Positions 3,587 through 59,164 of a stretch of DNA of 62,174 nt are shown here, piece by piece (positions within the stretch are counted from its first letter, which is position 1; every line of letters starts with the position of its first letter). The DNA comes from Patescibacteria group bacterium (GTDB taxonomy: Bacteria > Patescibacteriota > Microgenomatia > Levybacterales > GWA1-39-11). The stretch covers positions 1-62,174 of the forward strand of contig DASZRG010000026.1 of NCBI GenBank assembly GCA_035549295.1, given 5' to 3'. The position numbers were made by a program, and so were the translations under genes. Under the pieces are notes generated by a model. It saw only the letters and a list, made by a program, of their open reading frames with translations, did no database searches and was not told where the DNA came from.

Positions 3587-4729
3587 TATGGGCAGTCTTT
3601 TAAGCCTTTCGACTTAAAAATAAATTCTGTTGTGAAAATCATGGACATTCAAAGCTGATTGTCCAATTTTTTTCTGTACATCCATAGTACTCATATTTTT
3701 CATACCGTGTCAAGCACTTTTCATAATAAAAAAACGCGATTTTTGAGGCTAAATGTCTAGTATTTTACTTTTCACGATAAATTCTTACAGAAAATCCTCA
3801 GAAATCTATAACTTTTGATATACTCTTTTTCCTAGATTTTTCACGGGATAGTGGAAATGCTATGGGATTGTAGAAGGGTATCAAAACATCAAGGGCCTGC
3901 CTTCCGGCAGGCAGGTATCAAAAGTATCAAGATTATCAGAAGTATCAGAAGCATCAGAGTTTCAGATAACAAGAAGTATCGGCTGGTCGGAGAATCAGGG
4001 GGTCTGATGGTCAGAGATTTCAGAGAATCAGAGAATCTAAGTGTTTCAGAGATCAGATAGTCGAAAAATCAGAAGAGCTAAATTAGTACTCGCGCTTCAC
4101 TCAGTGCAAGCAAAACAAGAGTTAACAAATAACCACCTAGACACCTGTGCTAGACAGAGCTATAAACCGTAGTCCGTAGTCGGTAAGCAGTAAGCATGGA
4201 TATTTGACGGTAGATTGCATACCTCACAGCAGATACCCAACTCCCCGCAATTACCACTATCTTTGCGGTTAATTTGCTATCACTCAAGACATCTCGAAGA
4301 CTTTGACCCACAAGTTATCCGCCGTTAAATACTTCACTGTTGAACTCTTTTACTGATAGACTGCTTAACCGCATAACTATTCTACAAAACCGCACTCTAT
4401 ACTCTATACTATAAGTTCTACTATAACTTGTCCTTTCACAACACTGTATCTTGTAGTATATCCTCCAGGATACCCACAATTATGTTATAGTTTTATTACA
4501 TACTTTAACGTTAATATCGGGACAAATAGCTTCATATGTCTAATTTTTACGCCATTATTTTCTCCACTTTTTGGGTCTTTTTAGTGATCAAAAAAACCTT
4601 TTTATCGAACTAAATTATTTATCACTCTAGATCGTGAAACGATAACTTTTTATTACTTTAGGACTATTTTGAATATTTGAATAATGAATAATGAAGAAAG
4701 AATAATGAACAAAGAGATACTAGAGACTA

Positions 4730-4765
4730 CCCGCCTGCAACGCTATGCGTAGCATTGCGAGCAGG
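4730..4765. repeat. Small palindromic element P1, copy 1
   Basis: CCCGCCTGCAACGCTATGCGTAGCATTGCGAGCAGG, flanked by AGATACTAG at 4715-4723 and 4771-4779. Confidence 0.8.
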
Positions 4766-15581: not shown

Positions 15582-15586
15582 ACTAG

Positions 15587-18925: not shown

Positions 18926-19045
18926 CCGCAAGGGTTTAGCGTTTAGCGGTTAGGGGTTAGTTAAGAACTAAGAACCAACCGCCAACAGCCAACCCCAAAT
19001 CTCTTGACTTACCTTCCGCTTTCGCTCTATTCTAGATACGTGGGT

Positions 19046-21373: not shown

Positions 21374-21482
21374 GAAACCTGCCGGAAGGTATCAAAAGTA
21401 CCATAAGCATCAAGGATATCAAAAGCTAATCTCTGGATTAAAATATTGGTGGCATTGGTAGTAATTGTAGTATTATTAAACT

Positions 21483-22832: not shown

Positions 22833-22942
22833 ATGATAGGAGTTAGGGGTTGGCGTTTGGGGGTTAGCAAAAGACTAAAAGCTAAGAGCTAAATGCCAAC
22901 CGCCATTCACTACTCTTGTTTCGCTGTCGCCAATCTCCTATC

Positions 22943-24529
22943 ATGAAAATTGTGTTTGAAAAGATCATTTCATCAAAAAAAAGGCTTGGACTATTTTTGT
23001 TTGTAGCAACTGCGCTTCTTTCTATCCCCTTCACTCTCTCGCTTCTTGCAAGACAACAAGATCTTCGCCAGCATGCTGATGATGGTGGGTTTGGAGACAT
23101 TTGTCTTGATTGTCAGCTCAATGGTGATGGTGGTGGAAGCCCACCTCTTGGTGGTGGAGGAATTTTTGGTGGCGGTGGAACAGTTGTCGGAGGAGTTGGT
23201 GGCGGTGGAACTCTGACATGTGACCAACTAGCACAACAAAACGGAGCATCATCCATGGCAGCATACTGTTCAGCCAATGGAGGACTTTGTCCAAGTACTG
23301 CAAATGGAACATGCGGGTGCACAAGTTGTGCCGGTGGTACGGGCGGAAGCGCAACAGGAGCCGGCGGCTCTCAACAAAATACAACAGGCGCACTTACAAA
23401 TTGCACAGTAGACAATTCATATATCGCAGTAGATAGTGATGAGCAAAGTGAAGTGGATCTCATAAATCAATACAGACAACAAAATGGCCTACCGGCTCTG
23501 CCACTCTCACTCGCTTTGACTCGCGATGCTGCTTGGATGACCAAGGACATGGGAGATAAAAATTACTTTAGTCATACTGATTCAGCAGGTAGATCTTGGG
23601 ATACTCGTGCATCACAATGTGGCTATCCCGACTTCGCAGCAGATATTCTTGATGCTGGTACCGGCAACATAACCCCTCAATCGACCCTTGTTGATTGGCA
23701 GAACTCTCCAGGACACGACAAAGTCATAAAAGATCATATCGACGGTACTGATACCACTTACGACTGGAAAGCCATAGGAATAGCCCATTACACGGCAAGT
23801 AATGGCCAAACTTATTGGGATGCGGTATTTGGTCTGACAAATGACGGCGGTGTTGTGCCAACAATTGCCGCAACGCCAACACCGACCAATACTCCTACTC
23901 CAACGTCGCATCCGACAGCAACACCAATACCGACTCAGGCCGGACTTTCACCAACACAAAGTCAATCAAACCCAACTGCTACTCCAATCGTCCAACAGTC
24001 GCCAACTGCAACTCCTACTCTTGCTGCAAATTCCAGTGCGATTTCTATTAACTTTACGCTTCCAGGTATTGGCGGTAACCAAAATGCAGGTGAGAATTCC
24101 AATCCAATGTCCTACAATTTACCCACCGAAATTGCAGTATATGATCTGTCGGGAAATAAACTTGCAGACAACAATTTAACCGCATCATACAACTCAACAA
24201 CCTTCATCTACAATCTTCAAGCAGCACTGGGTGCGGCAGCTGGAACTTATGACTTTAAAATAAGAACAGCATCATCTCTTTGGAAAGATATAGGAACAGT
24301 CACGGTATCTGTTGGACAAGTTGCCAATGGTGGAACCGTTGCGCTCATCACGGGTGACCTAACACAAGACAACTCACTTGATCTAGCCGACTATAACGCC
24401 ATTATTTCATGCTATGGCGACAATCCTTGCGCCAACCCTCAAGCCGCAGATCTTAATATGGACGGGATAGTTGATGAACGCGACCTCAACATCTTCTACT
24501 CGGGACTCTCAGCGAGACAGGGAGACTAG
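22943..24529 (+). CDS. Secreted CAP/SCP (PR-1-like) domain protein with Ig-like module and C-terminal dockerin
   Basis: The ATG at 22943 gives MKIVFEKIISSKKRLGLFLF (track ORF begins at 22916). YRQQNGLPAL...FSHTDSAGRSW...WQNSPGHDKVI...GQTYWDAVFG follows the CAP/SCP pattern. C-terminus GDLTQDNSLDLADYNAIISCYG...ADLNMDGIVDERDLNIFY. Confidence 0.8.
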   Translation: MKIVFEKIISSKKRLGLFLFVATALLSIPFTLSLLARQQDLRQHADDGGFGDICLDCQLNGDGGGSPPLGGGGIFGGGGTVVGGVGGGGTLTCDQLAQQNGASSMAAYCSANGGLCPSTANGTCGCTSCAGGTGGSATGAGGSQQNTTGALTNCTVDNSYIAVDSDEQSEVDLINQYRQQNGLPALPLSLALTRDAAWMTKDMGDKNYFSHTDSAGRSWDTRASQCGYPDFAADILDAGTGNITPQSTLVDWQNSPGHDKVIKDHIDGTDTTYDWKAIGIAHYTASNGQTYWDAVFGLTNDGGVVPTIAATPTPTNTPTPTSHPTATPIPTQAGLSPTQSQSNPTATPIVQQSPTATPTLAANSSAISINFTLPGIGGNQNAGENSNPMSYNLPTEIAVYDLSGNKLADNNLTASYNSTTFIYNLQAALGAAAGTYDFKIRTASSLWKDIGTVTVSVGQVANGGTVALITGDLTQDNSLDLADYNAIISCYGDNPCANPQAADLNMDGIVDERDLNIFYSGLSARQGD

Positions 24530-26628: not shown

Positions 26629-26652
26629 CTTGCCAAGATCAGATCTTGACAG
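26629..26652. terminator. Palindromic hairpin of the CTGCCAAGATCWGATCTTGGCAG family (imperfect copy), downstream of uppP
   Basis: CTTGCCAAGATCAGATCTTGACAG, 36 nt after the uppP stop. Two further copies lie at 27379-27401 and 46645-46667. Confidence 0.5.
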
Positions 26653-26728
26653 GAAAAATGTGGGCCGGAAGTATAGGAAATTAGCTCGTGATACCCTAGT
26701 TTTATGTAATAGCCTAAAACAAAAATCT

Positions 26729-26792: not shown

Positions 26793-27308
26793 TTAAAGAG
26801 TGGCGAGGCCGGTGGGGACTTCAGATCTTCCTGATGCAATTGCTTCTTCAATTCCTGAAAAATCAGGAGCTTGCTGACTCGGCATCCAAGTGTGAGTCAT
26901 CGGGCTATAAAGACTTGCAGATTTAAAAGTGCTGTAATAAGCCCCAATGTTAAAATTCAAATCATCCTCTACTTTCACCCATTTATCATCTATGTTTCTC
27001 TTTACCTCATATGGCGCTTTACCTTTTTGCACTACAACGGCATAGTCACTAAACCGATTGTCTTTATATACTTGGAAATATACTATAGCGAGTGAGGAGT
27101 TTTGTTCGTGAATTGTAATGTAATCACCCTCCACCGACCCGTTAGGATTATATACGTATTTAGAATTGAGGTTGTATCTCATTGCTTGAGAAATTTTTAG
27201 ATTTATCAAATTAGCCCACGAATTGTAGTCATGCGGCCCTATTTCTTCAGGGGCGAGCGACGATAGATATCTCTTGTCTTTAAGTGATTCTAATTCATAC
27301 CTAACCAT
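26793..27308 (-). CDS. Hypothetical protein
   Basis: 171-aa ORF. TGaTATAAT lies 7 nt before the ATG. No family recognised. Confidence 0.6.
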   Translation of the reverse strand: MVRYELESLKDKRYLSSLAPEEIGPHDYNSWANLINLKISQAMRYNLNSKYVYNPNGSVEGDYITIHEQNSSLAIVYFQVYKDNRFSDYAVVVQKGKAPYEVKRNIDDKWVKVEDDLNFNIGAYYSTFKSASLYSPMTHTWMPSQQAPDFSGIEEAIASGRSEVPTGLATL

Positions 27309-27378: not shown

Positions 27379-27401
27379 CTGCCAAGATCTGATCTTGGCA
27401 G
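27379..27401. terminator. Perfect palindrome CTGCCAAGATC-T-GATCTTGGCAG downstream of the minus-strand gene 27461-28507
   Basis: 11-bp arms seen directly; it lies 60 nt beyond the stop of the surface-protein gene. Confidence 0.5.
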
Positions 27402-28507: not shown

Positions 28508-28617
28508 ACCCTAAATTTATGATAGCAAACTGAAATTCTGCTTGGAGTTTTCCAGCCCCACAACCTCCAAGGAATCTCCTTGTCAGGCACGCGCAGGGAG
28601 TCTCCTTGTCAGTAGGC

Positions 28618-28686
28618 AGGTTAACGGGTTAACGCGTTGCGTGTTAACGAGTTTTTCGCATTTTCATTATTCTTTATTCTTTATTA
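28618..28686. repeat. Composite word element (TTAACGRG array - TTTTCGCATT - TCATTATTC array), copy A
   Basis: AGGTTAACGGGTTAACGCGTTGCGTGTTAACGAGTTTTTCGCATTTTCATTATTCTTTATTCTTTATT. Related copies lie at 39036-39150, 44019-44129 and, inverted, at 35731-35850. Confidence 0.8.
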
Positions 28687-28803
28687 AAAACATAGCTCGT
28701 GATACTCTTGATACCTTTGATACCCGTGATACTTTTAAAATATGTGGGGGCGTTAAGTTGTGATCGAGTCGTAGACTCGACGAAACGGGTGCCCCCGAAC
28801 CCA

Positions 28804-30104: not shown

Positions 30105-30929
30105 CTACGCTGCTTTCAGCGACTGTTCAATATCCTCGATGATGAGTTCCAGTGCTCGCTCAGACGAGCCAATCCTGAGGATCGGACTTCCGTCCTTGGC
30201 GTCGTACTCCTCAGGAGGACGCGTGATGGCGCGGCCGATAACGACAAAGACTGCCCCATTGCTGATTGCAATTCCCGGCGTATCGCCGCGATCCGCGTTC
30301 TGATCCCCTCTTGGAAACCAGACCGGGTATGAATTGGGGCATACTGGCATAAGCCTTGGAATGATTCCGTGTTCTTTCAGTGCCTCCAATTCTCCCGGAG
30401 CACAGACGAGACCATCAAAGCGCGCTTGGATTAGACCCCCAGCAAGCTCTACTACCGCTTCTTCGGCTGTCGCGCCAAAGACTCGATTACAGTCAGCTGG
30501 ATCCATGTCGGTGAGCGCGGTCACGCCGATTTTCAGCGCGCCGTTGTCAATTGCGGCTACCTGCTTGAGAGTGTTCATGCTATTTGAAGCATGAATCGTC
30601 ATCATGCGAGCCTGAATACCTGCCAGACTCTTGATCGACTCGACGACGGTGTTCGCGATATCGTGCTCTTTGATGTCAAGCATGACTTGATTGCCCATCA
30701 GGGCAAAAAGCTCTGCGAGCTGATCGTTGAAACTATCACGTTCGTACCTGGATGCAGCATCCTGCGCTGACGCATTGACAGCAAAGGTCCTCTCGATAAG
30801 CTGCCTTCCTTGCTTGAAGCCACAGTCGTAATGACCAAGACGCTTGACAATGTCTATCGCCTTTGAGGGGTGATCGACATCGAGCGCCGTGATAACTCGC
30901 TGTGCTGCAGTAAGATTTGCAACGTCCAT
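30105..30929 (-). CDS. pyrF: Orotidine-5'-phosphate decarboxylase family protein
   Basis: ITALDVD, GFKQG, the signature MLDIKEHDIANT (D-x-K-x-x-D-I-x-N-T) and VVIGRAITRP. Confidence 0.75.
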   Translation of the reverse strand: MDVANLTAAQRVITALDVDHPSKAIDIVKRLGHYDCGFKQGRQLIERTFAVNASAQDAASRYERDSFNDQLAELFALMGNQVMLDIKEHDIANTVVESIKSLAGIQARMMTIHASNSMNTLKQVAAIDNGALKIGVTALTDMDPADCNRVFGATAEEAVVELAGGLIQARFDGLVCAPGELEALKEHGIIPRLMPVCPNSYPVWFPRGDQNADRGDTPGIAISNGAVFVVIGRAITRPPEEYDAKDGSPILRIGSSERALELIIEDIEQSLKAA

Positions 30930-31086
30930 TGTTTGTTCCCTAACTCCTTAAAGTGCTAAAAAACTTACACAGTAAACCCTGTGCTGGCTGATGGGAATTA
31001 TACAATTGACAACTGACAATTGACAACTGACAGGGAAGTAAAAGGTATCAAAAGTATCAAAGGTACCAGAAGTATCAAGGGGGTTT

Positions 31087-31165
31087 ATATATTAAATATT
31101 ATAGATTAGATATTATATAAACTTGGAATTTTTATAATATGTAATATGCAATATATAATATGTAG
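31087..31165. repeat. AT-rich word element, copy 2 (see 13296-13372)
   Basis: TATATTAAATATTATAGATTAGATATTATATAAACTTGGAATTTTTATAATATGTAATATGCAATATATAATATGTAG. About 80 nt, closely similar to 13296-13372. Confidence 0.8.
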
Positions 31166-31378
31166 AAATTGGCCTCAAGAATGGAAGATCTGATGGGGTT
31201 TGACCGTATTTGAGCATGCTAATTTATGCCAATTTTTGGTGCGAATTAATGCAAAAATGCATCGTCATTCTGAACTCGCTTCAGAAGCTCATGTTGAGGT
31301 CCTGAAATAAATTCAGGACGACAATTAATCAATCTGGGAGATTCTAGTTTCTAGTCTCTAATATCTAGTATCTAATTA

Positions 31379-31591
31379 CTATTGTTCTGACTTGGCCTGT
31401 ATGCCGAGGAGGTACATAACTGCTTCTTTTTTATATCTTCTATCCCCTCTTGAATTAATTCTTATTGCAGGGAGCTTTCCGCGTTTTCCCCATCTTTTGA
31501 TAGTAAGTGGAGAAACTCTGAGAATCTCTGCGACTTCACGTACCGTAAGTAGATCTGGAAGGTTGCTGATTGATATATTTTGCTGTGGCAT
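31379..31591 (-). CDS. Small excisionase-family (HTH_17) DNA-binding protein
   Basis: MPQQNISISNLPDLLTVREVAEILRVSPLTIKRWGKRGKLPAIRINSRGDRRY. Track ORF 31379-31660 has a longer, unlikely N-terminus. Confidence 0.7.
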   Translation of the reverse strand: MPQQNISISNLPDLLTVREVAEILRVSPLTIKRWGKRGKLPAIRINSRGDRRYKKEAVMYLLGIQAKSEQ

Positions 31592-31932
31592 ACTATTTAA
31601 AAATCTGTCTATCTGTATAAGATATGCAACTAGACTAACAAACACCATCAGGGGTGTCAAGGACTAAAATTATTATGAGTTTTAGAGATTAAAATTTTGT
31701 AAAAATAGTGTCAGCTTAATGACAACTTTTGGAGGTTCAGGGGAGGGAAAATACTTTGGGATGTTTGTATCAAAAACGGACTACGCTACCCTAAAGTTTC
31801 CGAATGTTTACTCCGAATTATCCCAAATACTTGGATTGAAGTGAAAATTTTAGCTAGATCATATTAGGCACAATTAGCCTCAAATCTATTCGGTTTATTC
31901 GGACTAACAATTTGGATCCATTCGTGATGGGC

Positions 31933-32715
31933 CTAATTTTCTGGAGATTTTAAACGATTACCAAGCCAGGTCCAAAAAATTAGGGCCCCAAAAACGGCCA
32001 ATCTCAGCTGGCGGAAAATTCTCCACGGCTGGCGGACAAGACGAAACAACCATTCGAGGCCAATTTTTCTCAAAAAAGCTGGCGCTCGTACTACCCTCTC
32101 TGATAAAAAATCAAACGATCCGCCCACAGCCATCAGTACTGTTGCTGGAACTTCAGACTTGTGAGACTCGATCCACTTCTCCTGTTTAGGAAATCCCAGC
32201 CCAACATACAAAATATCTACACCCGACGCGCTCATTTTCTCCCTGTCGTATACGTCTGATGCATATCCGATAGTCATTTTTGGACTGATTTTTTGCAAGC
32301 GCTTGCCAGCCTCAACTGCTACCCCCTCCTGAGAACCGATTAATCCAGTCACGACGGGCCGTTTTGATATAGAGAGGTCATGTTTTTGTAAGTGTTGAGT
32401 AAGACTTTTCATGAAATCGACACCAGCTATTCGACGCCTAATAGGCAGACCAAGTAGTCGAGCTCCAACAACCACTCCCACTCCATCTGGCAAGGCTATA
32501 TCTGCTGAGTTGAGAAGTGACTTGAGGCTATTATCAAATTGTGCAGCCACAATCTGCTCAGGGTTGGGAGTAAATATAACAACCTGTCTGTCTCCAGGCA
32601 AGTTCTTCGTACCTGTCTTAGACCTTTCCGAGAGCTTTTTTTCAATATATTCTAGGATCTCCTCCTCTGAAGCGGTTGTAATTTTAACTCCCAAAAGTTT
32701 TATTGAACTTAGCAT
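31933..32715 (-). CDS. WecG/TagA/CpsF-family glycosyltransferase
   Basis: IFTPNPEQIV, GLGFPKQEKWI, GGSFDFLSERVVRAP and GLEWLFRLVRQPWR. Confidence 0.85.
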   Translation of the reverse strand: MLSSIKLLGVKITTASEEEILEYIEKKLSERSKTGTKNLPGDRQVVIFTPNPEQIVAAQFDNSLKSLLNSADIALPDGVGVVVGARLLGLPIRRRIAGVDFMKSLTQHLQKHDLSISKRPVVTGLIGSQEGVAVEAGKRLQKISPKMTIGYASDVYDREKMSASGVDILYVGLGFPKQEKWIESHKSEVPATVLMAVGGSFDFLSERVVRAPAFLRKIGLEWLFRLVRQPWRIFRQLRLAVFGALIFWTWLGNRLKSPEN

Positions 32716-32727: not shown

Positions 32728-33062
32728 CTACGAGATGAGATATATTTTGAATAATGAATAACGAATAAGGAATAATGAATAAATTTATTGAACTGCAATT
32801 TTGATCGTGATTTACCAAACTTTCTAACATATTAGATATTATAGATTAGATATTATAGAAATTACTTCTATGAGTTTAATTTGTTGTGGAAATAGTGGCA
32901 TATTTGTGTGAAAAATTGGGGATTATTTGGCGTTTAATATTTGACTATGAGATTTAGTATATGGTTATCAGTTCTCGGTTTTCAGTTATCAGAATCTGGT
33001 TTGTTAGTTTTCAGGTTGCCAGTTTTGCTTCGGTCAATTGTCAATTGTCAATTGTTCCAATC

Positions 33063-34070: not shown

Positions 34071-34525
34071 AAATTAAACAGATTTAATACGAGCAATTAG
34101 ATACTAGCTACTAGAAACTAGTTTCTAATTTCTAGTCTCTAGTTTCTCGAATAACATATCAGACTACAACTCAAATCTATCATTTTTTCCCAAAATGAAC
34201 GGGAGCAAGATTAATAAGTTATAGCATCGAGTAGGATCTGTTTCAATAGATCAAAGAGAATCAACGCTGAATAATTATTCAACGTAATAACCCAATACTA
34301 CCAATATACAAATAAACAAATCAATAAAAGACAAAATTATTTAATTCCTTAAATGATTTAATAATTGATTCCGATTTAATCGGGATTGATTGGGTTATTG
34401 GGTTATTTGTTTATTGGGTTATTAAAATGGCTTACCCTGCATCATTTACAGTATTTGTAGTATTTGTAGTATTGGCCCGCTGATAGTTTTCAGTCGGGAT
34501 AAATAGTATTATAATTGAGAGAGCT

Positions 34526-35730: not shown

Positions 35731-35850
35731 AGAATCATGAATAATGAATAAAGAATAATGAAGAATGAATAATGAAATTAGGAAAAACTCTTTAACCCGT
35801 AACTCTTTAACTCGCAAACCCGTTAACCCGTTAACCCGTTAACCCGTTAA
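35731..35850. repeat. Composite word element, inverted copy D
   Basis: GAATAATGAATAAAGAATAATGAAGAATGAATAATGAAATTAGGAAAAACTCTTTAACCCGTAACTCTTTAACTCGCAAACCCGTTAACCCGTTAACCCGTTAACCCGTTAA. This is the reverse complement of the arrangement seen at 39036-39150. Confidence 0.8.
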
Positions 35851-37825: not shown

Positions 37826-37872
37826 AATATTAGTATCAAGTATTTTGTAAGAAGTATCAAGAGGCGCGACGT

Positions 37873-37960
37873 AAAGGTATCAAAAGTATCAAGGGTATCA
37901 AAAGTATCAAATGCTAATTAGCCCGTGATACTCGTGGTACACTTGGTACCCGTGATACCC
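37873..37960 (-). repeat. 88-nt intercistronic GTATC-word hairpin element (copy between RR1 and the kinase)
   Basis: AAAGGTATCAAAAGTATCAAGGGTATCAAAAGTATCA - 12 nt - CCCGTGATACTCGTGGTACACTTGGTACCCGTGATACCC. Near-identical in both arms to 38342-38429, but the 12-nt loop differs. Confidence 0.85.
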
Positions 37961-37967
37961 TTTCGGC

Positions 37968-38336: not shown

Positions 38337-38341
38337 TCTTA

Positions 38342-38429
38342 AAAGGTATCAAAAGTATCAAGGGTATCAAAAGTATCACAAGCAAATCTGCCCGTGATAC
38401 CCGTGGTACACTTGGTACCCGTGATACCC
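38342..38429 (-). repeat. 88-nt intercistronic GTATC-word hairpin element (copy between RR2 and RR1)
   Basis: Same length and arm sequence as 37873-37960. A third copy of the right arm lies at 15748-15786. Confidence 0.85.
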
Positions 38430-38438
38430 ATCTCGCGC

Positions 38439-38807
38439 TTACTCTCCTATTAGATCCTTGATCTTCATTGAGAGATCATCAGGTGTCATTTGGTATTTTA
38501 GAATATAGTCGTTTGCACCAGCGGCGATTGCTTCCTTGACTAGTTGATCATCATTAAAGTTGGTAAGGACTATTATAGGAAGCTTGGCGGTTGCTGGATC
38601 CTGGCGGAGGACTTTTATGATGCTATTTCCTGACATATCAGGCATCATTTCATCAACTATCATCACATCAAATTGGCTAGCCTTAACAAGTTCAAGTGCG
38701 TGCTTTCCGGAGTCTGAAACTTCTACTTCATAACCAACAGAAGTAAGTGCGGCCTTAAAAACATCGATTGCCTGCTGTTCGTCATCAACTACTAATACTC
38801 GCTTCAT
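38439..38807 (-). CDS. Single-domain (CheY-like) response regulator, paralogue of 37968-38336
   Basis: VLVVDDE, DVMIVDEMMPDMSG and NDYILKY; 122 aa. Confidence 0.9.
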   Translation of the reverse strand: MKRVLVVDDEQQAIDVFKAALTSVGYEVEVSDSGKHALELVKASQFDVMIVDEMMPDMSGNSIIKVLRQDPATAKLPIIVLTNFNDDQLVKEAIAAGANDYILKYQMTPDDLSMKIKDLIGE

Positions 38808-39035
38808 AGTTTCTAGAAACTAGAGACTAGAAAATAGATACTAGTTTCTAATATCTAGTATCTAATATCTATCTCAATATCTCATTCAAGGCTACCACTT
38901 AACAATTTTAAAAACAAGCCCCAAACACATAATTATTTACGTTTGGGGTGCAGTCCCGCATACACGCCCTTGCGACGCGTGGATGTAGACCACGGGAGCA
39001 AGTAAGTGATGTGCGGGGCAAGAGGTAATCAGAAT

Positions 39036-39150
39036 TAGTATTATGTATTATGTAGTAAGTATTAAGTTATGTTAACGAGTTAACGTGTTGCGTGTTAACG
39101 AGTTTTCGCATTATCATGCTTCATTAATCTTTAATCATTATTCATTATTC
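39036..39150. repeat. Composite word element, copy B (TAGTATTATGTA words - TTAACGAG array - TTTTCGCATT - CATTATTC array)
   Basis: TAGTATTATGTATTATGTAGTAAGTATTAAGTTATGTTAACGAGTTAACGTGTTGCGTGTTAACGAGTTTTCGCATTATCATGCTTCATTAATCTTTAATCATTATTCATTATTC. Confidence 0.8.
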
Positions 39151-42957: not shown

Positions 42958-43026
42958 TAAGTATTCTAGCGGACTTCCCGTATGCTAATTTATGCAAATT
43001 CTTACTGCGAATTGATGCATATGATA

Positions 43027-44016
43027 TCATTTGGATATAGTTGTTGGGTTTTTTGAAAACTTTAGCCAAATTGCCGCAACTATTAGATAGTAACCGGCGA
43101 CCAGAGTCCACGGAACTGTCTTCAATTCTACCATCTGCGAGTGTTTTGCAAAGTAGTCAATCACCAGAAAGAAGTATGAAAGAAGAGGTAGACAGAGATA
43201 CACGAGAGGTGCAGCAAGAACTGGAATTGGCGAAAGTATTGCCGCGATTCCACCCAATACCATAAGCGGCGGAACAGTCCACAGAACTAAAAAATTGGTG
43301 ACAATAGATATGACCGAATAACTTCCGAAGAATAAAAGCAAAATAGGAGTCGTCGCAATTTGGGCCGAGATAGTTGTCCTGAAATCTTCGAAAAAATCAC
43401 TCTTCATCACTCTTTTCATGATGGGGTCAAAGAGTATTATTCCCGCAGTTGCGGTAAAAGAAAGAATAAAGGAAATCGAAGTAATCACACTTGGGTCATA
43501 AAAGATCATAACAAAGGCTGTGAAAAGGAGCGCAATAAGTGAAGTATTTTGCCGTCCGACTATTCCAGCGCCCAGCGCAACAGTCCCCATGATAGCAGCT
43601 CGCATAATAGATGCTTGAAAATCAGCGAGTGCTGCATAGAAAAATATAACAAGAATTGTTGCCACCAAAGCGTGCTGTCGCCTCAAAAATAGGATCAAAA
43701 ATCCTAGCACAAAGGACGTTGCCATGCTAATGTTCATACCTGATGCTGCGATGATATGGAGCACTCCGGTCTTTTGGAAATTTTTCATCGCAGTCTTATC
43801 TAGAGTTTTATCCCCAAATACTATTCCCATTAGAAGATCTGCATCCTGCCCGCCCAAATACTCACCATAAACCTGCCTGATATGAGACTTCATCTCCGTG
43901 AAAATGCTAGGAGCGGGCTTTTCACTCGTGACTATTCCCGCAGACTGAGCCGAGGGATGATAGAAGTACAGACGAAGCGAGAGAAGAAGCAGGAGGATGA
44001 GAAAGAAGCGTATCAT
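43027..44016 (-). CDS. comEC: ComEC/Rec2 competence (DNA channel) membrane domain
   Basis: LLMGIVFGDKTLDKTAMKNFQKTGVLHIIAASGMNISM; polytopic membrane protein of 329 aa. Confidence 0.85.
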   Translation of the reverse strand: MIRFFLILLLLLSLRLYFYHPSAQSAGIVTSEKPAPSIFTEMKSHIRQVYGEYLGGQDADLLMGIVFGDKTLDKTAMKNFQKTGVLHIIAASGMNISMATSFVLGFLILFLRRQHALVATILVIFFYAALADFQASIMRAAIMGTVALGAGIVGRQNTSLIALLFTAFVMIFYDPSVITSISFILSFTATAGIILFDPIMKRVMKSDFFEDFRTTISAQIATTPILLLFFGSYSVISIVTNFLVLWTVPPLMVLGGIAAILSPIPVLAAPLVYLCLPLLSYFFLVIDYFAKHSQMVELKTVPWTLVAGYYLIVAAIWLKFSKNPTTISK

Positions 44017-44018
44017 AG

Positions 44019-44129
44019 TTAGTATTAAGTATTATGTAGGAAGTATTAAGCAAGTTAACGAGTTAACGAGTTAAAGTGTTAACGAGTTTTGCATTCTCAT
44101 TATTCATTCTTCATTATTCTTTATTCATT
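44019..44129. repeat. Composite word element, copy C
   Basis: TAGTATTAAGTATTATGTAGGAAGTATTAAGCAAGTTAACGAGTTAACGAGTTAAAGTGTTAACGAGTTTTGCATTCTCATTATTCATTCTTCATTATTCTTTATTCATT. Confidence 0.8.
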
Positions 44130-44788
44130 TATAAACTGATAAGGTCTCGTATCTTATCCATCGTCTTTTGCGTGATGGATTTTTTGCTGACGAGTTCGTC
44201 GAGCGACGAATATGGGCGGTTGTTGATGATCTTTGCAGCACTTACTGGGCCAATTGCAGGAAGACCCTCAAGCTGCTCTTCGCTTGCACTATTAACCGAA
44301 ACTAATCCTCCTGCATTTTCCGGATTAATATTGCCCGTGATACTTGTGGTACCCTTGATACCCGTGATACTCATGTCCACAGTACCCGTGATACCTTTAA
44401 CTTCTTCACCCTTTGCTGGAATATAAACCTTCTGGCCGTCGTATACTTTGGCCGCAAGGTTCACTGCATTGCGGTCTGCCACGGCTCCCATACCACCAGC
44501 AGCAATTAGCGCATCCTGAACTCGCGCATCACCAGATAGCTCATAAACCCCTGGCTTGAGAACTTGGCCCTCAACATCTACCTTTATTTTGCCACTTGGC
44601 GTAACTGATGTAGCTACTCCAGCCACCTGCTCACCTCTCTCAAATTTGACTGTAGCTGTCTTCTGCCCAGCTATCTGCATCACTCCAATTGCCAAAAATA
44701 TTAATCCAAGAACGAGAAGTCCTATAAAAAGCACATTACCTGAGACAAAACGTGAGAGTCTCTCCTGAAAACTACCTGAATCTTCCAT
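44129..44788 (-). CDS. comEA: ComEA DNA receptor (TM, SLBB-like domain, repeat-derived linker, helix-hairpin-helix)
   Basis: C-terminal VNSASEEQLEGLPAIGPVSAAKIINNRPYSSLDEL, with an N-terminal TM helix. Confidence 0.85.
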   Translation of the reverse strand: MEDSGSFQERLSRFVSGNVLFIGLLVLGLIFLAIGVMQIAGQKTATVKFERGEQVAGVATSVTPSGKIKVDVEGQVLKPGVYELSGDARVQDALIAAGGMGAVADRNAVNLAAKVYDGQKVYIPAKGEEVKGITGTVDMSITGIKGTTSITGNINPENAGGLVSVNSASEEQLEGLPAIGPVSAAKIINNRPYSSLDELVSKKSITQKTMDKIRDLISL

Positions 44789-44852
44789 GAGTTTAGTATT
44801 ATTCGTCCGAGGTTATGAAGTCAAGTGACATCTCCCTTGAGAGAGACGCTTC

Positions 44853-45860: not shown

Positions 45861-45864
45861 TATA
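45852..45864 (-). promoter_or_regulatory. TATAAT placed 7 nt before the ATG at 45851 (predicted leaderless)
   Basis: The minus strand reads TATAAT-GAGCATT-ATG. Confidence 0.45.
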
Positions 45865-45915
45865 AAGTCTTTCCGAGGCTAAATCAATTATTATAAGACT
45901 AACTATAAGATTTTA

Positions 45916-45930
45916 TGCTATAATCCCACT
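45916..45930 (+). promoter_or_regulatory. Extended -10 promoter TGcTATAAT placed 6 nt before the ATG (predicted leaderless)
   Basis: TATAAT at 45919-45924 and ATG at 45931. Confidence 0.55.
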
Positions 45931-46638: not shown

Positions 46639-46644
46639 TTTTTC

Positions 46645-46667
46645 CTGCCAAGATCAGATCTTGGCAG
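46645..46667. terminator. Perfect palindrome CTGCCAAGATC-A-GATCTTGGCAG between convergent genes
   Basis: 11-bp arms, located between the stops at 46638 (+) and 46714 (-). Confidence 0.55.
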
Positions 46668-46713
46668 ACGAATTGGATTGCGGAATCAGGCTAATCAATG
46701 CGGTTTAGATTAA

Positions 46714-49356
46714 TTAGATCACGAAATTGATTATCTTGCCAGGGACGTAAACTACCTTCTTCACTACTACTCCGTCAACGTAAGAAGCGACTACCTCGCG
46801 TGCCCTCTCCTCAACCCTCGCCTTATTCTCGATACTGGATACTGAATACTCAATACTGATTTCCCCTCGTCTCTTACCATTCACCTGGACAGGAATGACT
46901 ACTTCATCCTGTACGAGATACTTCTCATCATACTCCGGCCAGTTCTGCGTATGTATGCTTTGGCTCTTAACGGTTAGCTCTTGGCTCTTGGTTTTTTCTA
47001 ACCCCAAACCCCCAACTGCCAAACGCTGCCACAGCTCCTCCGCCAGATGCGGGGCGAATGGAGCCATGACTCTCAGGAATTTTTCCCATACCTCACTCCA
47101 ATTTATCTTAGTGCCAAGTTTTTGAGCATCGGTTAGGTCGTTGTAGAATTCCATCATTGTTGATATCGCAGTGTTGAAGCGCATTCCCTCGATATCATCT
47201 GTTATTTTCTTTATCGTACTATTTAGAAGTATATCAATCTGTTTATCTTGCTCTTTATTTTCGAGTGCATGTGTCTCCTCAAAGAGTCTATAGATCTTTT
47301 TAATAAAGCGCGACATCCCCTCAACTCCAGTAAGACTCCAAGGCTTCATCGCGTCAAATGGACCAAGGAACATCTCGTACATGCGCAGCGTATCAGCTCC
47401 GTATTTAGGGATAATATCATCTGGTGTTACGACATTGTGCCATCGTTTACTCATCTTTCGCGAGTCAGGTCCCAAAATCCAGCCTGGCGCACGAAGCTTG
47501 AGAAATGGCTCCTCACCTAGAGACTTCTCGATATATCCTGCGTCAAATATAACTTTCCAGAAGAATCGAGCAAATAGAAGATGTTGCACCACATGTCCCC
47601 CACCAACATAGACATCGACCGGAAGCCATTTTGCGATAGCTTCACGTGATGCGAATTCTTTTTCATTTTTGGGATCAACAAATCTCAAAAAGTACCATGA
47701 TGAGTCGACAAATGTATCCATAGTGTCGACCTCTCGACTTGCTGGTCCACCACATCCAGGACATGTGACACCTTCTTGAAAAGACTTTGACAAGGCTATC
47801 GGCGATTTACCAGTAGGTCTGAAATCAACATCGTGAGGAAGGAGAATCGGCAAATCTGACTCGGGAGCGGGATACCAACCAGCGTAATCGTCATTGCGAG
47901 GAGTCGAAGACGACGAAGCAATCTCCCGCGCTGAGACTGCCGCGCTATCGCTCGCAGTGACATTTTCTGTGAACCAAGATTTCCCATCGTGGGCGCACGA
48001 CTCACAATAGATCATAGGGATTGGAACTCCCCAATAACGTTGTCTTGATATCAGCCAATCTCGGAGATGATAAGTCGTCTTTTTCTCACCTATTTTCTTC
48101 TTATCAAGATCTGATATAACCTTATCAAATTCATCAGGCATCATAAGTCCATCCCAATCGCCTGAATTTTTGAGCACGCCACTCCCCACATATGCCTCAC
48201 TTAAATCTTTTGTCGTATCATCTTTTGATTTGAAGATTACTTGCTTTATTGGCAAGTTGAACTTGGTGGCAAATTCAAAATCGCGCTCGTCATGTGCCGG
48301 TACGGCCATGATCGCGCCAGTCCCATAGCCCATAAGTACATAGTCAGCTATCCAGACAGGTATCTTTTCGCCTGATACAGGATTTATACAATATAGGCCA
48401 GAAAATACTCCAGTTTTTTCTTTGTTCTCTCGTCTATCAGCATCACTCTTTGCTTTCGCCTCAGCCACATAACTTTTTACATCTTCTATATCGTAAGGAT
48501 CATTTAATATATCATTATCAGTTTTTGATATTTGCTTTCTGATATTCGATATTTCTTCTACTACAGGGTGTTCAGGTGACAAAACCAAGAATGTTGCGCC
48601 GTATAGCGTATCTGGTCGAGTTGTAAAAACATTGATTTCACGGTCTAAACCATCGATTTTAAATTCTATCAAAGCACCATCGGATCTGCCAATCCAGTTC
48701 TTCTGCTGGGTCTTAACTTCCTCGAGCCAATCAATACCGGCAAGATCATCGATCAGTCGATCAGCATAGTCAGTAATCTTGAAGAACCACTGATTGAGCT
48801 TCTTCTTGATAACCTCATCGCCAGAGCGTTCACACTTGCCATCAACCACCTGCTCGTTGGCCAGCACTGTCTCGCAGGACGGACACCAGTTAACATCTGC
48901 TTCCTGCTTGTAGGCAAGACCCATCTTGAAGAACAATGTAAATAGCCACTGAGTCCAGCGATAGTATTCAGGGCTACTCGTATCTATCTCATGACTCCAA
49001 TCGTATGAGAGTCCTACGCTTCTGAGCTGACGCTTAAAGGTCTTGATATTCTCATGAGTTGATTCATCAGGGTGAATTCCAGTCTTGATAGCATAATTTT
49101 CAGCAGGTAGTCCAAAAGCGTCCCACCCCATCGGATGCAAAACGCTTGCGCCTTTCATGCGAAAGTAGCGAGATATGATATCAGTACCCACGTAGCCTTC
49201 TATATGCCCCACATGAAGAGTCGCGCCAGATGGATAAGGGAACATATCAAGAACGTATTTTTTGTTCGCACCCGACTCATCGGTCTGATAGAGACCACTC
49301 TCCTCCCATTTTTTTTGCCACTTGGCCTCTATTTTTGAAGGATCATATTGATTCAT
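46714..49356 (-). CDS. leuS: Leucine--tRNA ligase carrying lineage-specific insertions
   Basis: PYPSGATLHVGHIEGY (HIGH region), KMSKRWHN (KMSKS) and the C-terminal VQVNGKRRG...VVYVPGKIINFV. Confidence 0.95.
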   Translation of the reverse strand: MNQYDPSKIEAKWQKKWEESGLYQTDESGANKKYVLDMFPYPSGATLHVGHIEGYVGTDIISRYFRMKGASVLHPMGWDAFGLPAENYAIKTGIHPDESTHENIKTFKRQLRSVGLSYDWSHEIDTSSPEYYRWTQWLFTLFFKMGLAYKQEADVNWCPSCETVLANEQVVDGKCERSGDEVIKKKLNQWFFKITDYADRLIDDLAGIDWLEEVKTQQKNWIGRSDGALIEFKIDGLDREINVFTTRPDTLYGATFLVLSPEHPVVEEISNIRKQISKTDNDILNDPYDIEDVKSYVAEAKAKSDADRRENKEKTGVFSGLYCINPVSGEKIPVWIADYVLMGYGTGAIMAVPAHDERDFEFATKFNLPIKQVIFKSKDDTTKDLSEAYVGSGVLKNSGDWDGLMMPDEFDKVISDLDKKKIGEKKTTYHLRDWLISRQRYWGVPIPMIYCESCAHDGKSWFTENVTASDSAAVSAREIASSSSTPRNDDYAGWYPAPESDLPILLPHDVDFRPTGKSPIALSKSFQEGVTCPGCGGPASREVDTMDTFVDSSWYFLRFVDPKNEKEFASREAIAKWLPVDVYVGGGHVVQHLLFARFFWKVIFDAGYIEKSLGEEPFLKLRAPGWILGPDSRKMSKRWHNVVTPDDIIPKYGADTLRMYEMFLGPFDAMKPWSLTGVEGMSRFIKKIYRLFEETHALENKEQDKQIDILLNSTIKKITDDIEGMRFNTAISTMMEFYNDLTDAQKLGTKINWSEVWEKFLRVMAPFAPHLAEELWQRLAVGGLGLEKTKSQELTVKSQSIHTQNWPEYDEKYLVQDEVVIPVQVNGKRRGEISIEYSVSSIENKARVEERAREVVASYVDGVVVKKVVYVPGKIINFVI

Positions 49357-58000: not shown

Positions 58001-59067
58001 TCCATGCAACTGAAGCATCAGGTTCTGCCGTTGTCGCATCGATAGATAATTCAGGCAACGCCACATTCTCTGGAAGTCTCACTACTGCATCTGCTTCAAT
58101 CTCAGGAAACCTAACAGCAGCTGGCGATGCAACCGTTGCAGGCACATTGTATGCAAACAATATACAGGCGAGCTCAATAGAGGGACTTGATGATAGGATT
58201 AAATCTATCACGCAGGCAAACGACGGGTTCAACAATGTATCAAGACAAGCTATTTCAAACTACCATACAGAAATTGCATCCGAATCCGCTGGTCTTATCG
58301 CAAGCATCAACAACCAAGACGGAATTGTCGTCGGGCATTTCATTGATATTCAGAATCTATCTGCCGACTTTGGCACCTTTAGACAAGGCCTAACTGCACT
58401 CGGCCCATCTACATTTGCCGAGGCAAGTGTCTTGGGGACTTTGAGCGTTGGCAACAATATGACTTTTGACCAAAACTCTATCAACACTTACGGCACCGAT
58501 CTTGCAATACAACCTCTGAAGCAAGGTGCGGTTGACTTCCTGGCTGGTGCCGTCCGAATCGAGACCGATGGAACACTCAAAGTTTCAGGCAATGCATACT
58601 TTGCCTCAAACGTCACGGTTGGCGGCAATTTAAATACAAACGTCATCTCTCCTCTATCAAATAGCAAGCCGCTAACAATTACAAACTCAAAACCATCCGA
58701 TGGTGAAACAGGACTTGAAACCGATGACCACACATTACTTAACGTACAAGGTTCAGCCTCGGTATCAGGATCTCTTACTCTTGGCAAACTCAATTTCCCC
58801 CTCGTTGCACCAGCCTATGCAGTGTCTGATGTAGAGGTTGTCGCAACGGGATCTGCCGGCATGACAACTCTCAAGCAATACAGAACCGAAGTAACTATAG
58901 ATAACCCTATCGTAACAGATCATTCTCTTATATACATCTCGCCAGTCGGGCCATCAAACGACCAGTCGCTCTTCCTCATGCGCCAAGTCCCCGGAAAGTC
59001 ATTTACAGTTGGCGTCAATTCCCAAGCAATAAGCGACATCAATTTCAATTGGATAATCGTAAATTAG
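55027..59067 (+). CDS. Giant single-pass membrane fibre protein: two N-terminal tyrosine-recombinase core-binding (SAM-like) domains, TM helix, tail-fibre-like repeats, internal peptidase-S74 chaperone module
   Basis: FKSYLLEKKKVSHITLKNYSSDISRFLNWY...RSLERYISTLKRFADFM...NPF and FKDFLYVNGASRATMKNYIVDINAFTTW...IDRKISSIRKYFKY are core-binding-domain-like. TM helix AFTNYLHLAILIIYATILSMIMY at nt 56014-56082. VDFLVGGQSSASAKFSVTNVNSGTPTASISG matches the repeat unit of the gene at 1-3586. TSDERTKTNIQ...VTFTYN...GVIAQDIQKVAPY...INAIKELDAKIGAL is S74-like (nt 57440-57750). Confidence 0.85.
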   Translation: MSNIGLQFKSYLLEKKKVSHITLKNYSSDISRFLNWYSQYFGVEFRPDNFDSKLIKRFVDEMKNGGDPIARPSARSLERYISTLKRFADFMIATNLIVENPFASDENRSQQATDEWKMRGFKDFLYVNGASRATMKNYIVDINAFTTWISQSFDFSDISDPAELLTNSVLEQYKVRLKEVFNLSQASIDRKISSIRKYFKYAGRETELPVKEYQKFINTAKAEVIVPEPIATTAENTLTMDSLQLEPDPVMTSYSPIPPFRLVQKLLLPYLLLEEMISHKIALGVRRRHLETYIKAGEQLPKPDVKNTNTLLNRLKNNRPMWYKRYHNMAFTNYLHLAILIIYATILSMIMYRNMFDNKNGVQASTIAPQRVLSFQGRLTDNNDNPITSTTSVRFQIYNDASASGSALLWQEVDSVTPDNNGIFSVLLGSGSNCNGQPLTSQTTPCAIPQDLFGTHDNLYLGIAVQTTAELTPRQKIATVAYAANSESVQGMLPTTDSNAGQTNVILALDSSGNLTIGGSANPTFSASGGQFKLSGQPIVLATNPGSNGDIQLIPDGTGKIDAEAPLVNNGTSGIVTPGGVEVDDRFGVIATESSVAAFIVNNNTTGGDIFAASSSGTTRFVLQNTGDISIQPGASIDTLSIGSISIGGTNASTISLGRIGQGIRFPGFSVQNGVLYDEYGTGNLQQVTTFTPNQCLLSGPSNPYWGDCSLSGSSAFWNQVNGALSPNNSTVDFLVGGQSSASAKFSVTNVNSGTPTASISGNLIVMPNVSNSSGGNVGIGVASPTHTLELWNDDAAKSLTTTWTVTSDERTKTNIQSFNDGLAVIDQIDPVTFTYNGLGGTIAGASGIGVIAQDIQKVAPYTVGTFQAKLNPNDTNETTLLDFNPHALFFITINAIKELDAKIGALSQNVVTQAISAGQVSAQSLNVATNSITIAGVNLKDYIAEVVAEQLGTSQLVSPLASTNQVKTNVISPLADDSHISIGLDKSKVTIHATEASGSAVVASIDNSGNATFSGSLTTASASISGNLTAAGDATVAGTLYANNIQASSIEGLDDRIKSITQANDGFNNVSRQAISNYHTEIASESAGLIASINNQDGIVVGHFIDIQNLSADFGTFRQGLTALGPSTFAEASVLGTLSVGNNMTFDQNSINTYGTDLAIQPLKQGAVDFLAGAVRIETDGTLKVSGNAYFASNVTVGGNLNTNVISPLSNSKPLTITNSKPSDGETGLETDDHTLLNVQGSASVSGSLTLGKLNFPLVAPAYAVSDVEVVATGSAGMTTLKQYRTEVTIDNPIVTDHSLIYISPVGPSNDQSLFLMRQVPGKSFTVGVNSQAISDINFNWIIVN

Positions 59068-59164
59068 AGACTAGATATTAGATACTAGAGACTAGCAATG
59101 AATCAAAAAAATCATAATATCTAGTATCTAGTGACTAGTCCCTAGAATTGTGCTAGCATAAATT

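Follow-up and report, generated by a model that had tools for sequence, protein, structure and literature searches.

Heptamers are the commonest class of long simple sequence repeats (SSRs; long ones, LSSRs) in bacteria, lying in intergenic DNA and having no known function, according to the introduction of PMC4679880 (citing Mrazek 2007) and to passages of PMC4692102. Short tandemly repeated repetitive (STRR) sequences are known from the heterocystous cyanobacteria Calothrix and Nostoc, as both papers state with reference to Mazel 1990. GGGNATC repeats occur in Xanthomonas and Nostoc (Rehm 2015, PMC4692102), and direct repeats of TAACTGA, in two to six copies, were found just upstream of starts lacking a Shine-Dalgarno (SD) sequence in marine Beggiatoaceae, some cyanobacteria and Bacteroidetes (MacGregor 2015, PMC4679880). 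Arrays of short words were studied here in the full 62,174-nt stretch of contig DASZRG010000026.1, which is called the window and to which all coordinates refer. To judge from its sequence, the window is chromosomal DNA of an uncultivated bacterium of the candidate phyla radiation (CPR, Patescibacteria), Microgenomates group. Its word arrays are real, strongly non-random and mainly intergenic.

Abundance and location of the word arrays

Tandem arrays were called over the whole window with Tandem Repeats Finder (TRF), and genes were mapped heuristically as the longest non-overlapping open reading frames (ORFs). TRF returned 107 rows. Period 7 accounted for 45 of them, periods 8 and 9 had 14 rows each, period 14 had 12 and period 18 had 6. 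On the heuristic gene map, arrays occupied 15.3% of the bases between genes, compared with 1.7% of those within ORFs, and several of the rows counted as lying in ORFs were within over-extended or spurious ones, such as the repeat-made ORF 28542-28763. The spacers held 1722 nt of array in 71 rows, 35 of them of period 7, compared with 75 ± 54 nt, 3.5 rows and 0.5 period-7 rows in 50 dinucleotide-preserving shuffles. A TRF array was found in 21 of the 34 spacers of at least 40 nt, and an array or a dispersed module copy in 23; together, arrays and copies made up 25.6% of spacer bases. An earlier reading of the window made from its letters alone (the sequence-only reading), according to which nearly every spacer consists of such words, was thus overstated. 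The first 3.6 kb, an array-free "spacer" in the gene map, is actually one long minus-strand ORF.

The arrays had the features of intergenic heptameric SSRs of the STRR/LSSR kind, namely head-to-tail tandem units within the 5-11-nt range of such repeats and with heptamers as the commonest class, an excess over composition, a mainly non-coding location and the same unit at many loci. GAATAAT recurred at 9 loci, runs of TAG-N4 heptads (CTAG and TTAGSG words) at about 10 and CAAYTGA at 3. In CRISPR arrays, repeats of 24-48 nt alternate with unique spacers of similar length; the TRF rows of the window had periods of 7-18 nt and no unique spacers. As the sequence-only reading had stated, they represent neither a CRISPR array nor a classical satellite. 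A stop codon on at least one strand was carried by 87% of period-7/8 units and by 70% of random heptamers, a weak enrichment that is expected simply from exclusion from ORFs.

A Logan contig, from a separate assembly of run SRR12170510, was 100% identical to window positions 44100-49619 (5520 nt), which contain four period-7 arrays. Because an independent assembly was identical across the arrays, these are not scaffolding artefacts, a possibility that the sequence-only reading had raised. One end of this Logan contig lay within a GAATAAT array, its final 30 nt matching 35743-35772 exactly; such a break inside a shared array is the behaviour expected when real shared words break the de Bruijn graph. 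Neither the flagged 70-mer of the window nor a 50-mer from its relative L082 had an exact match among the GTDB representative genomes.

The stretch that had been flagged, 31000-31170, consists of a CAAYTGA array, module B and module D placed end to end. The three word runs claimed for it were all present (CAATTGA/CAACTGA at 31003-31032, GTATCA-N3 at 31043-31080 and ATATTATAGATTAGATATTATA at 31096-31118), and every further locus quoted with them carried its stated word. The features of this stretch and of the adjoining DNA were as follows.

31002..31032, plus strand: heptamer array (CAATTGA/CAACTGA) x4.4 with a perfect 14-nt dimer (TRF)
31041..31078, plus strand: module B, four GTAYCA cores every 9 nt (AAAGGTATC AAAAGTATC AAAGGTACC AGAAGTATC)
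31085..31164, no strand assigned: module D hairpin, arms ATATTAAATATTATAGATTAGATATTATA (left) and TAATATGTAATATGCAATATATAATATG (right)
31216..31253, plus strand: module G, ATGCTAATTTATGCCAATTT..., with a period of 10 nt and one further copy at 42982-43019 (87%)
31343..31381, minus strand: TAG-N4 heptad array of the CTAG family (module E), its first unit being the TAG stop of gene 31379-31660 (minus strand)

The arms of module D were 81% complementary with 7 nt between them, and the left arm reads TATAATATCTAATCTATAAT on the minus strand. Gene 31379-31660 (minus strand) is HTH_17/MerR-like.

Dispersed modules, hairpins and gene junctions

Self-comparison of the window revealed about ten dispersed modules of 30-120 nt, in agreement with the roughly ten families counted in the sequence-only reading. 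Each module consists of three to seven tandem words of 7, 8 or 9 nt, in which a conserved 4-6-nt core (CTAG/TAG, GTAYCA, GAATAA, GTTAAC, CAAYTGA, TTAGSG or CCAAC) is combined with 1-3 variable bases, as in CTAG-NNN, GTAYCA-NNN, GAATAA-N and GTTAAC-NN. The following copies were found.

44012..44129, plus strand: composite module A, (AGTATTA)n-(GTTAACGN)n-linker TTTTGCATT-(TCATTMT)n, filling the entire ComEA-ComEC spacer
39028-39146 (83% over 120 nt), 28613-28685 and 35732-35814 (reverse): further copies of module A
31041-31078, 3913-3953, 37873-37910 and 38340-38384: the four loci of module B, GTATCAAAA x4, the other copies being 88-92% identical
Five loci: module C, CCCGTGATA x4
37870..37965, no strand assigned: modules B (GTATCAAAA x4) and C (CCCGTGATA x4) as an inverted pair, filling the spacer between a histidine-kinase and a response-regulator gene
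38340..38434, no strand assigned: second B+C inverted pair, filling the 102-nt spacer between two response-regulator genes
44327..44377, minus strand: module C-like 9-mer array in the ComEA ORF, encoding an ITG-rich linker
31085-31164, 13298-13366, 15664-15692 and 32829-32861: the four loci of module D, ATATTAAATATTATAGATTAGATATTATA plus a complementary arm
Four loci: module E, CTAG-heptad palindromes
34082..34157, no strand assigned: module E palindrome, CTAG-NNN heptads in one continuous phase, ending 16 nt before the mreB start (34070, minus strand)
38808..38882, no strand assigned: module E palindrome, CTAG-NNN heptads, ending 5 nt before the start of response-regulator gene 38439-38807 (minus strand)
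59063..59145, no strand assigned: module E hairpin (TAGATAC arm, 20-nt loop, TATCTAG arm), starting at the TAG stop of gene 55027-59067 (plus strand); RNA fold z = -5.2
32748..32782, plus strand: module F, (TGAATAA) x5, ending about 33 nt before the start (leaderless type) of the WecG-family gene 31933-32715 (minus strand)
4678, 28663, 35732, 39121, 44097, 51640, 52066 and 53253: the others of the nine loci of module F (GAATAAT)
Three loci: module J, GATACT words
18932..18998, plus strand: hairpin module of TTAGSGN heptads, a CTAAGAA centre and CCAACNG heptads, in phase with the TAG stop at 18923
46950..47030, minus strand: TTAGSG/CCAAC module in frame in the leucyl-tRNA synthetase (LeuRS) gene, encoding LAVGGLGLEKTKSQELTVKSQ
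4729..4765, plus strand: dispersed hairpin element of 37 nt, CCCGCCTGCARCGCTATGCGTAGCATTGCGRGCAGG, embedded in a TAGATAC-type word run; also found at 15544-15580 (95%)

Distant copies preserved the order of variant words as well as non-repetitive linkers. GTTGCGTGTTAACGAGTTTTCGCATT was found in three copies of module A, the order CCCGTGATA-CCCGTGGTA-CACTTGGTA-CCCGTGATA of module C was repeated at 15748, 37921, 38391 and 44333, and module E at 34082-34157 was 91% identical, in reverse orientation, to 38811-38866. Homologous copies of the TTAGSG/CCAAC module were located at 22833-22915 and 50878-50962 and within LeuRS. The preserved order of variant words at distant sites indicates that these are copies of one another. 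Perfect two-word dimers (14 nt at 31002-31032 and 32831-32859, 18 nt at 37876-37910) were as expected for recent slippage in two-word steps. The slippage-type origin put forward in the sequence-only reading therefore fits the dimers, whereas local slippage alone cannot explain the shared word order and linkers. When word orientation was compared with that of the flanking genes, the same family was found in both orientations, and modules B and C occurred singly as well as paired. The pattern GTATCA-N3 x4 is not specific, since more than 113 hits to it, from very diverse bacteria, were returned when genomes were scanned.

Two properties had not been mentioned in the sequence-only reading, namely the complementary array pairs that form hairpins and the modules in frame inside genes. 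Complementary pairs were found at 37870-37965, 38345-38419, 31086-31164, 34082-34157, 59065-59144, 13300-13372 and 38828-38871, and whole spacers folded as long imperfect hairpins with z of -3 to -7 on both strands. The hairpin at 37870-37965 had z values of -4.7 and -5.5 on the two strands, and that at 38340-38434 reached -43.1 kcal/mol, with z -6.7 on the gene strand. The strand preference of hairpin stability relative to gene direction was mixed, neither strand being consistently favoured, and thus gave no evidence for selection on one RNA strand. The alignment of five TTAGSG/CCAAC copies yielded a weak consensus fold (-3 kcal/mol) and no real covariation. Imperfect extragenic palindromes arranged in mosaics, as in repetitive extragenic palindromic (REP) sequences, bacterial interspersed mosaic elements (BIMEs) and REP doublets forming hairpins (REPINs), were present in the form of inverted pairs I1-I25, hairpin folds and mosaic modules.

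The arrays typically filled the interval between a stop codon and a point 4-30 nt short of the next start. A gene's own TAG stop was the first array unit at 18923, 22830, 59065 and 31381 (minus strand). TAG every 7 nt in runs of at least 4 units, a pattern that unites the CTAG and TTAGSG families, was counted at 44 overlapping positions vs 0.11 expected. Genes preceded by arrays lacked GGAGG, whereas genes in tight operons carried it; GGAGG-type sites were seen in the tight-operon genes 14144, 14720, 28804, 29463, 30105, 49909 and 50352. Stop-codon usage in the window was TAG 22, TAA 21 and TGA 6, TAG being unusually common for a bacterium. In many genes, a TAnAAT hexamer, often TGnTATAAT, ends 5-8 nt before the ATG with no SD sequence (24644, 26793-27308 and 31933-32715 on the minus strand, 34526, 39180, 41612, 45931, 46714-49356 on the minus strand, and others), a layout like that of leaderless mRNAs.

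Module D, which reads TATAATATCTAATCTATAAT on the minus strand, precedes the mature 5' end of each tRNA-Thr gene by 9-15 nt (copies 13298-13366 and 15664-15692), where TATAAT pairs were found, and is also located upstream of the orotidine monophosphate (OMP) decarboxylase and WecG-family genes. The CAAYTGA array 31002-31032 reads TTGTCAG/TTGTCAA on the minus strand, and the best promoter-like site of an 18.4-kb scan combined TTGTCA at 31026, an 18-nt spacing and TATAAT ending at 30997 on that strand. Its -35 hexamer is therefore inside the array, upstream of the OMP decarboxylase (pyrF) gene 30105-30929 (minus strand). Some modules thus look co-opted, module D as tandem TATAAT boxes and the CAAYTGA array as a -35 hexamer. 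Promoter-like sites numbered 55 in the scan vs 40.6 ± 7 in shuffles, about 2 standard deviations (sd). Hence, of the modular cassettes proposed in the sequence-only reading, promoter cassettes have some basis in the coincidence of words with promoter hexamers, although the enrichment is mild. A general terminator cassette was unsupported, since array hairpins lacked the U tract that follows the G+C-rich hairpin of an intrinsic terminator and, among 21 terminator-like hits in 18.4 kb (15 ± 4 expected), only 28628-28648 lay in an array. An Rfam search over the whole window returned two tRNAs only, and that on 30880-31420 nothing meaningful at E<=1.

The pyrF-like gene has a leader of about 60 nt containing a terminator-like hairpin (GCACAGGGTTTACTGTGT, then AAGTTTTTTA; 30967-30984, minus strand, plus the U run). 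On one side of this hairpin is the predicted promoter (30997-31026), on the other the start of the OMP decarboxylase gene (30929). The hairpin had no Rfam match and looks like a transcription attenuator. A palindrome counted, like the 37-nt element, among the dispersed modules, the 23-nt perfect or near-perfect CTGCCAAGATCWGATCTTGGCAG, has three copies (about 26630-26653, 27379-27401 and 46645-46667) shortly 3' of stop codons, those at 26630 and 46645 between convergent genes and that at 27379 between two minus-strand genes; having no U tract, it may be a bidirectional stop or processing signal.

The TTAGSG/CCAAC module in LeuRS occupies the same site in the relative L084 and is absent from L082 and from more distant LeuRS sequences. 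In ComEA, GTAYCACGG 9-mers encode an ITG-rich linker in all three clade members (window, L082 and L084). The LeuRS gene 46714-49356 (minus strand) was also noted to contain, at residues ~535-565, an insertion of about 30 residues (WFTENVTASDSAAVSAREIASSSSTPRNDDY) by the zinc-binding CxxC region, which was present in 0 of 8 aligned homologues.

The relatives used were L082/L083, from SRR9179563 and GCA_964525205.1 (two assemblies identical to each other), and L084, from SRR33452760. The closest LeuRS sequences were metagenomic proteins at 62-65% identity, followed at 52-58% by Candidatus Blackburnbacteria, Microgenomates and Woesebacteria. The density of period-7 arrays of at least 3 copies, per kb, was as follows.

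Window: 0.58
L082/L083 (syntenic, LeuRS 62%): 0.67-0.83
L084 (LeuRS 63%): 0.73
Two other CPR loci: 0.22-0.31
L085 (LeuRS 59%): 0
About 70 other bacteria: 0-0.05

The same array style was therefore found in L082/L083 and L084. Some of the GTATCA-N3 hits in Levy-, Curtiss- and other Patescibacteria also had a raised heptamer density (0.25-0.5 per kb), the choice of these loci being biased. Exact sharing of heptamer units with the window was seen in 4 of 7 cases for L084 (P=0.0005) and in 3 of 15 for L082 (P=0.03); a test allowing one mismatch had been dropped because its null was too high. The orthologous response-regulator spacers differed in word family, the window having GTATCA and L082 having CTAG. 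In the array-free L085, the LeuRS-ComEA-ComEC-MBL junctions (MBL, metallo-beta-lactamase-fold protein) measured 5, -20 and 14 nt, whereas the ComEA-ComEC, ComEC-MBL and (in L084) LeuRS-ComEA junctions of the window, L082 and L084 measured 44-112 nt, and those inspected were filled with arrays; L082 was an exception between ComEA and ComEC, where a GIY-YIG gene is inserted. On these comparisons, the trait is confined to a small clade, with junction spacers inflated relative to the array-free relative.

Origin of the arrays

The explanation to which slightly more credence than doubt was given is that the arrays grew by slippage and spread by block copying as mostly neutral or selfish interspersed repeats, some of them co-opted, and that they are the CPR counterpart of the STRR/LSSR heptamer repeats. 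Words would multiply locally by replication slippage, one or two words per step. Copies of whole blocks would then reach further junctions and, in some cases, protein loops that tolerate them, through recombination or template switching, possibly aided in trans by an enzyme encoded outside the window, and hairpins would be generated by palindromic cores and inverted copying. Most copies would be neutral or selfish passengers, persisting because they bear stop codons and lie outside ORFs. A minority would have been co-opted, such as the module D TATAAT boxes before the two tRNA-Thr genes and the -35 hexamer of the CAAYTGA array; A/T-rich arrays upstream of leaderless, SD-less starts would also be counted among them. 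Slippage as the growth step is supported by the young perfect dimers, and the block copies with shared order are incompatible with stuttering that is purely local. The presence and absence of the LeuRS copy, together with the inflated junctions, supports an insertion of blocks where genes meet, while the occurrence of both orientations, family swaps at orthologous sites, single arms and copies within ORFs fits mostly neutral or selfish repeats.

Several observations weigh against this explanation. No transposase, RAYT (REP-associated tyrosine transposase) or integrase catalytic domain was found among the approximately 50 ORFs of the window, and neither inspection by eye nor self-BLAST showed consistent terminal inverted repeats or target duplications, no systematic search having been made. 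The gene map is heuristic. Variable columns within arrays numbered 49 vs 57.9 ± 2.6 under random placement (P=0.003), which also fits selection, although this test is only indicative, as the arrays are partly copies of each other. Core words are common to relatives at 62-65% LeuRS identity, which also fits function. Finally, the arrays of the response-regulator spacers reach the ATG in the window and in L082 alike, which a neutral model does not predict.

These last observations bear on a second explanation, considered unlikely but the best of the alternatives, namely that the words form a cis-regulatory code. The periodic cores would serve one or more oligomeric DNA- or RNA-binding proteins as platforms and would be kept by selection; TAG every 7 nt, GTAYCA every 9 nt and GTTAAC every 8 nt would set initiation at SD-less genes or act as promoter or untranslated-region (UTR) cassettes. 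Variation confined to linker columns, exact words common across a deep clade, the 44 occurrences of TAG-N4 x4 vs 0.11 expected, and arrays ending 4-16 nt before the starts of response-regulator genes, mreB and comEC would all be accounted for. The same applies to the lack of GGAGG in array-preceded genes and its presence in tight-operon genes, to the array-filled response-regulator spacers of L082 up to the ATG and to module D upstream of two tRNA genes, and the same idea has been proposed for the Beggiatoaceae TAACTGA repeats (PMC4679880). However, such a code is difficult to reconcile with the occurrence of one family in both orientations relative to flanking genes, different families in orthologous spacers, modules inside ORFs and modules B and C both single and paired. 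The weak fold of the five-copy TTAGSG/CCAAC consensus (-3 kcal/mol), with no real covariation, and promoter-like sites only about 2 sd above shuffles also count against it.

A more far-reaching form of this idea was considered quite improbable. In that form, a clade-wide code would be read by oligomeric proteins, TAG heptads, beginning at a stop codon and reaching the next start, would couple termination, three-frame stop insurance and re-initiation at SD-less genes, and the words would be written by a dedicated copying activity. Its logic would resemble that of HutP, with UAG-N4 triplets, and of TRAP, with spaced triplets.

There is little likelihood that each array originated independently in place, by slippage or template switching under a lineage-specific mutational bias such as a repair defect, with no dispersal and with recurrent words reflecting the sequence preference of the process. 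The perfect young dimers and the clade-specific distribution agree with such an origin, as does the dominance of period 7 known from other bacteria, for which slippage was proposed (passages of PMC4679880 and PMC4692102, citing Mrazek 2007). It is disfavoured by the order of variant words and the non-repetitive linkers common to distant loci, for example GTTGCGTGTTAACGAGTTTTCGCATT in three module A copies, and by the homologous in-frame LeuRS copy.

Strict non-autonomous mobile elements of the REPIN type or resembling miniature inverted-repeat transposable elements (MITEs), moved by a transposase encoded elsewhere, for example a RAYT/IS200-type enzyme recognising hairpins, were also given a low probability. 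Hairpin-forming inverted pairs, dispersed copies, the presence and absence of the LeuRS copy, and the 37-nt hairpin nested in a word run, with its second copy by a tRNA gene and a 13-nt tRNA 3' end on both sides, are in line with mobility. Against it stand the lack of a transposase in 62 kb and of consistent terminal repeats or target duplications like those flanking the 100-400-nt units of MITEs (none seen, no systematic search having been made), as well as the ragged boundaries, mosaic modules and many single-arm copies. Assembly or scaffolding artefacts have a negligible probability: although de Bruijn assemblers can be misled by short repeats common to several loci and the Logan contig breaks inside an array, they are effectively refuted by the independent assembly (100% identity over 5520 nt with four period-7 arrays), the same style in relatives from other samples and assemblers, and arrays in frame in conserved genes.

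Other features of the window and comparison with known repeats

The window encodes the alpha, gamma and beta subunits of F1 ATPase, BacA, a phosphoribosyltransferase, OMP decarboxylase, a WecG-family glycosyltransferase, MreB, a PEGA protein, a histidine kinase, two response regulators, ComEA, ComEC, a metallo-beta-lactamase-fold protein, LeuRS, four dockerin-domain proteins and two tRNA-Thr genes. The dockerin proteins are encoded at 16193-24529 (plus strand) by four consecutive genes; they look secreted, and each has a C-terminal dockerin type I domain, the fourth match scoring 21.6 bits, just under the Pfam cut-off of 22.9 bits. A PAN domain is also present in one of them and a CAP domain in one. 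At the DNA level, three of their C-terminal regions share 68-75% identity, and a word-array hairpin is located at each junction. Gene 55027-59067 (plus strand; 1346 aa) has two N-terminal phage-integrase SAM-like domains and Peptidase_S74 (endosialidase chaperone), and no catalytic integrase domain was detected in it; this architecture is conserved in the L082 ortholog 682-4653 (1323 aa).

The ORF at 1-3590 (minus strand) runs off the window start with at least 1199 codons. It begins, by eye, as MerR/HTH_17-like, continues as a long Gly/Thr/Ser-rich repetitive protein and contains a single 2-copy 10-nt TRF row (3126-3146). Gene 51659-52045 (plus strand), for a 23S rRNA intervening-sequence protein (four-helix bundle, bAvd-like), is flanked on both sides by GAATAAT/TTATTCA arrays, one of which contains its start codon. 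Gene 12764-13210 (plus strand) encodes a small Trp-repressor-family-like helix-turn-helix protein (26.3 bits vs a Pfam cut-off of 27); one may speculate that it binds CTAG, although known TrpR sites have a spacing of 8 nt instead of 7, which counts against this idea. The copy of the 37-nt element by tRNA-Thr(CGT) (15525-15597) has GAGCCGATGGTGA, 13 nt of the tRNA 3' end, on both flanks, and these pieces resemble an insertion or integration scar.

The genomes of CPR/Patescibacteria are usually portrayed as small and tightly packed, whereas about a quarter of the spacer DNA here is word arrays. Full-text literature searches, within the limits of the collection searched, found no description of arrays of this type in CPR/Patescibacteria. 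The locus offers material for a study of mechanism, since it contains families side by side, block copies with diagnostic order, a dated LeuRS insertion and stop-phased arrays. Because the words break short-read assemblies and inflate ORF calls, the quality of metagenome-assembled genomes in this clade is affected.

BIME and BOX are short, extragenic, interspersed hairpin-forming repeats, built as mosaics of a few motif types and found at junctions inside operons. The modules share with REP/BIME, REPIN and pneumococcal BOX the extragenic imperfect hairpins, the motif mosaics and the position at gene junctions inside operons. However, REP and BOX units are not internally periodic arrays of 7-9-nt words and have no sequence similarity to the modules, and, unlike for REPIN/REP, there was no RAYT-type gene among the approximately 50 ORFs of the window. 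The modules are closer to mosaic REP/BIME-like or STRR-like repeats than was allowed in the sequence-only reading, according to which this is not a classical REP. Rickettsia palindromic elements are inserted in frame in protein genes. They resemble the LeuRS copy as palindromic repeats tolerated in frame in an essential gene with lineage-specific presence, but differ in sequence, size and host, and copies in ORFs are exceptional here.

Elhai reportedly described, in 2008, small dispersed repeats (SDRs) nested in the tandem heptamer arrays of Nostoc punctiforme. The 37-nt hairpin 4729-4765 is likewise inside a heptamer word run, but only two copies are present in 62 kb, and HIP1 is missing (GCGATCGC count 0). 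A Nostoc-type cyanobacterial STRR had been the first guess and was rejected because of this HIP1 count and because the LeuRS relatives are CPR of the Microgenomates group.

The Beggiatoaceae TAACTGA repeats are similar in being heptamer repeats before SD-less starts, with a word that bears stop codons, and the CAACTGA/CAATTGA family is one or two bases away from them. They differ in that many families, both orientations and common hairpin pairing are found here. No exact TAACTGA tandem was present in the window; the best two hits, CAACTGACAACTGA at 42109 and TAACTGAAAACCGA at 32975, had two mismatches each, and two near-hits vs 0.67 expected are not above chance, since 17 of 100 shuffles reach 2.

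The closest kind of known repeat is the intergenic heptamer repeat, membership in the REP/BIME, REPIN, BOX and Rickettsia families being unsupported. With STRR/LSSR repeats, the arrays share the dominance of heptamers, the intergenic excess, the many dispersed loci with typically about 4 units, the variants within arrays and, sometimes, inverted-repeat pairs, as well as the lack of a known function and slippage as the proposed origin. They differ from these repeats in their host, a CPR bacterium of an otherwise small, compact genome type, in having about ten families and 8- and 9-nt words in mosaics with multi-word modules copied as blocks, in extending from a stop to the next start, in their in-frame LeuRS and ComEA copies and in their A/T-rich words, which do not form G-quadruplexes. 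The heptamer-repeat phenomenon, known from cyanobacteria, Xanthomonas and Beggiatoaceae, thereby comes to include a very distant lineage, and this favours a general mechanism over peculiarities of single lineages.

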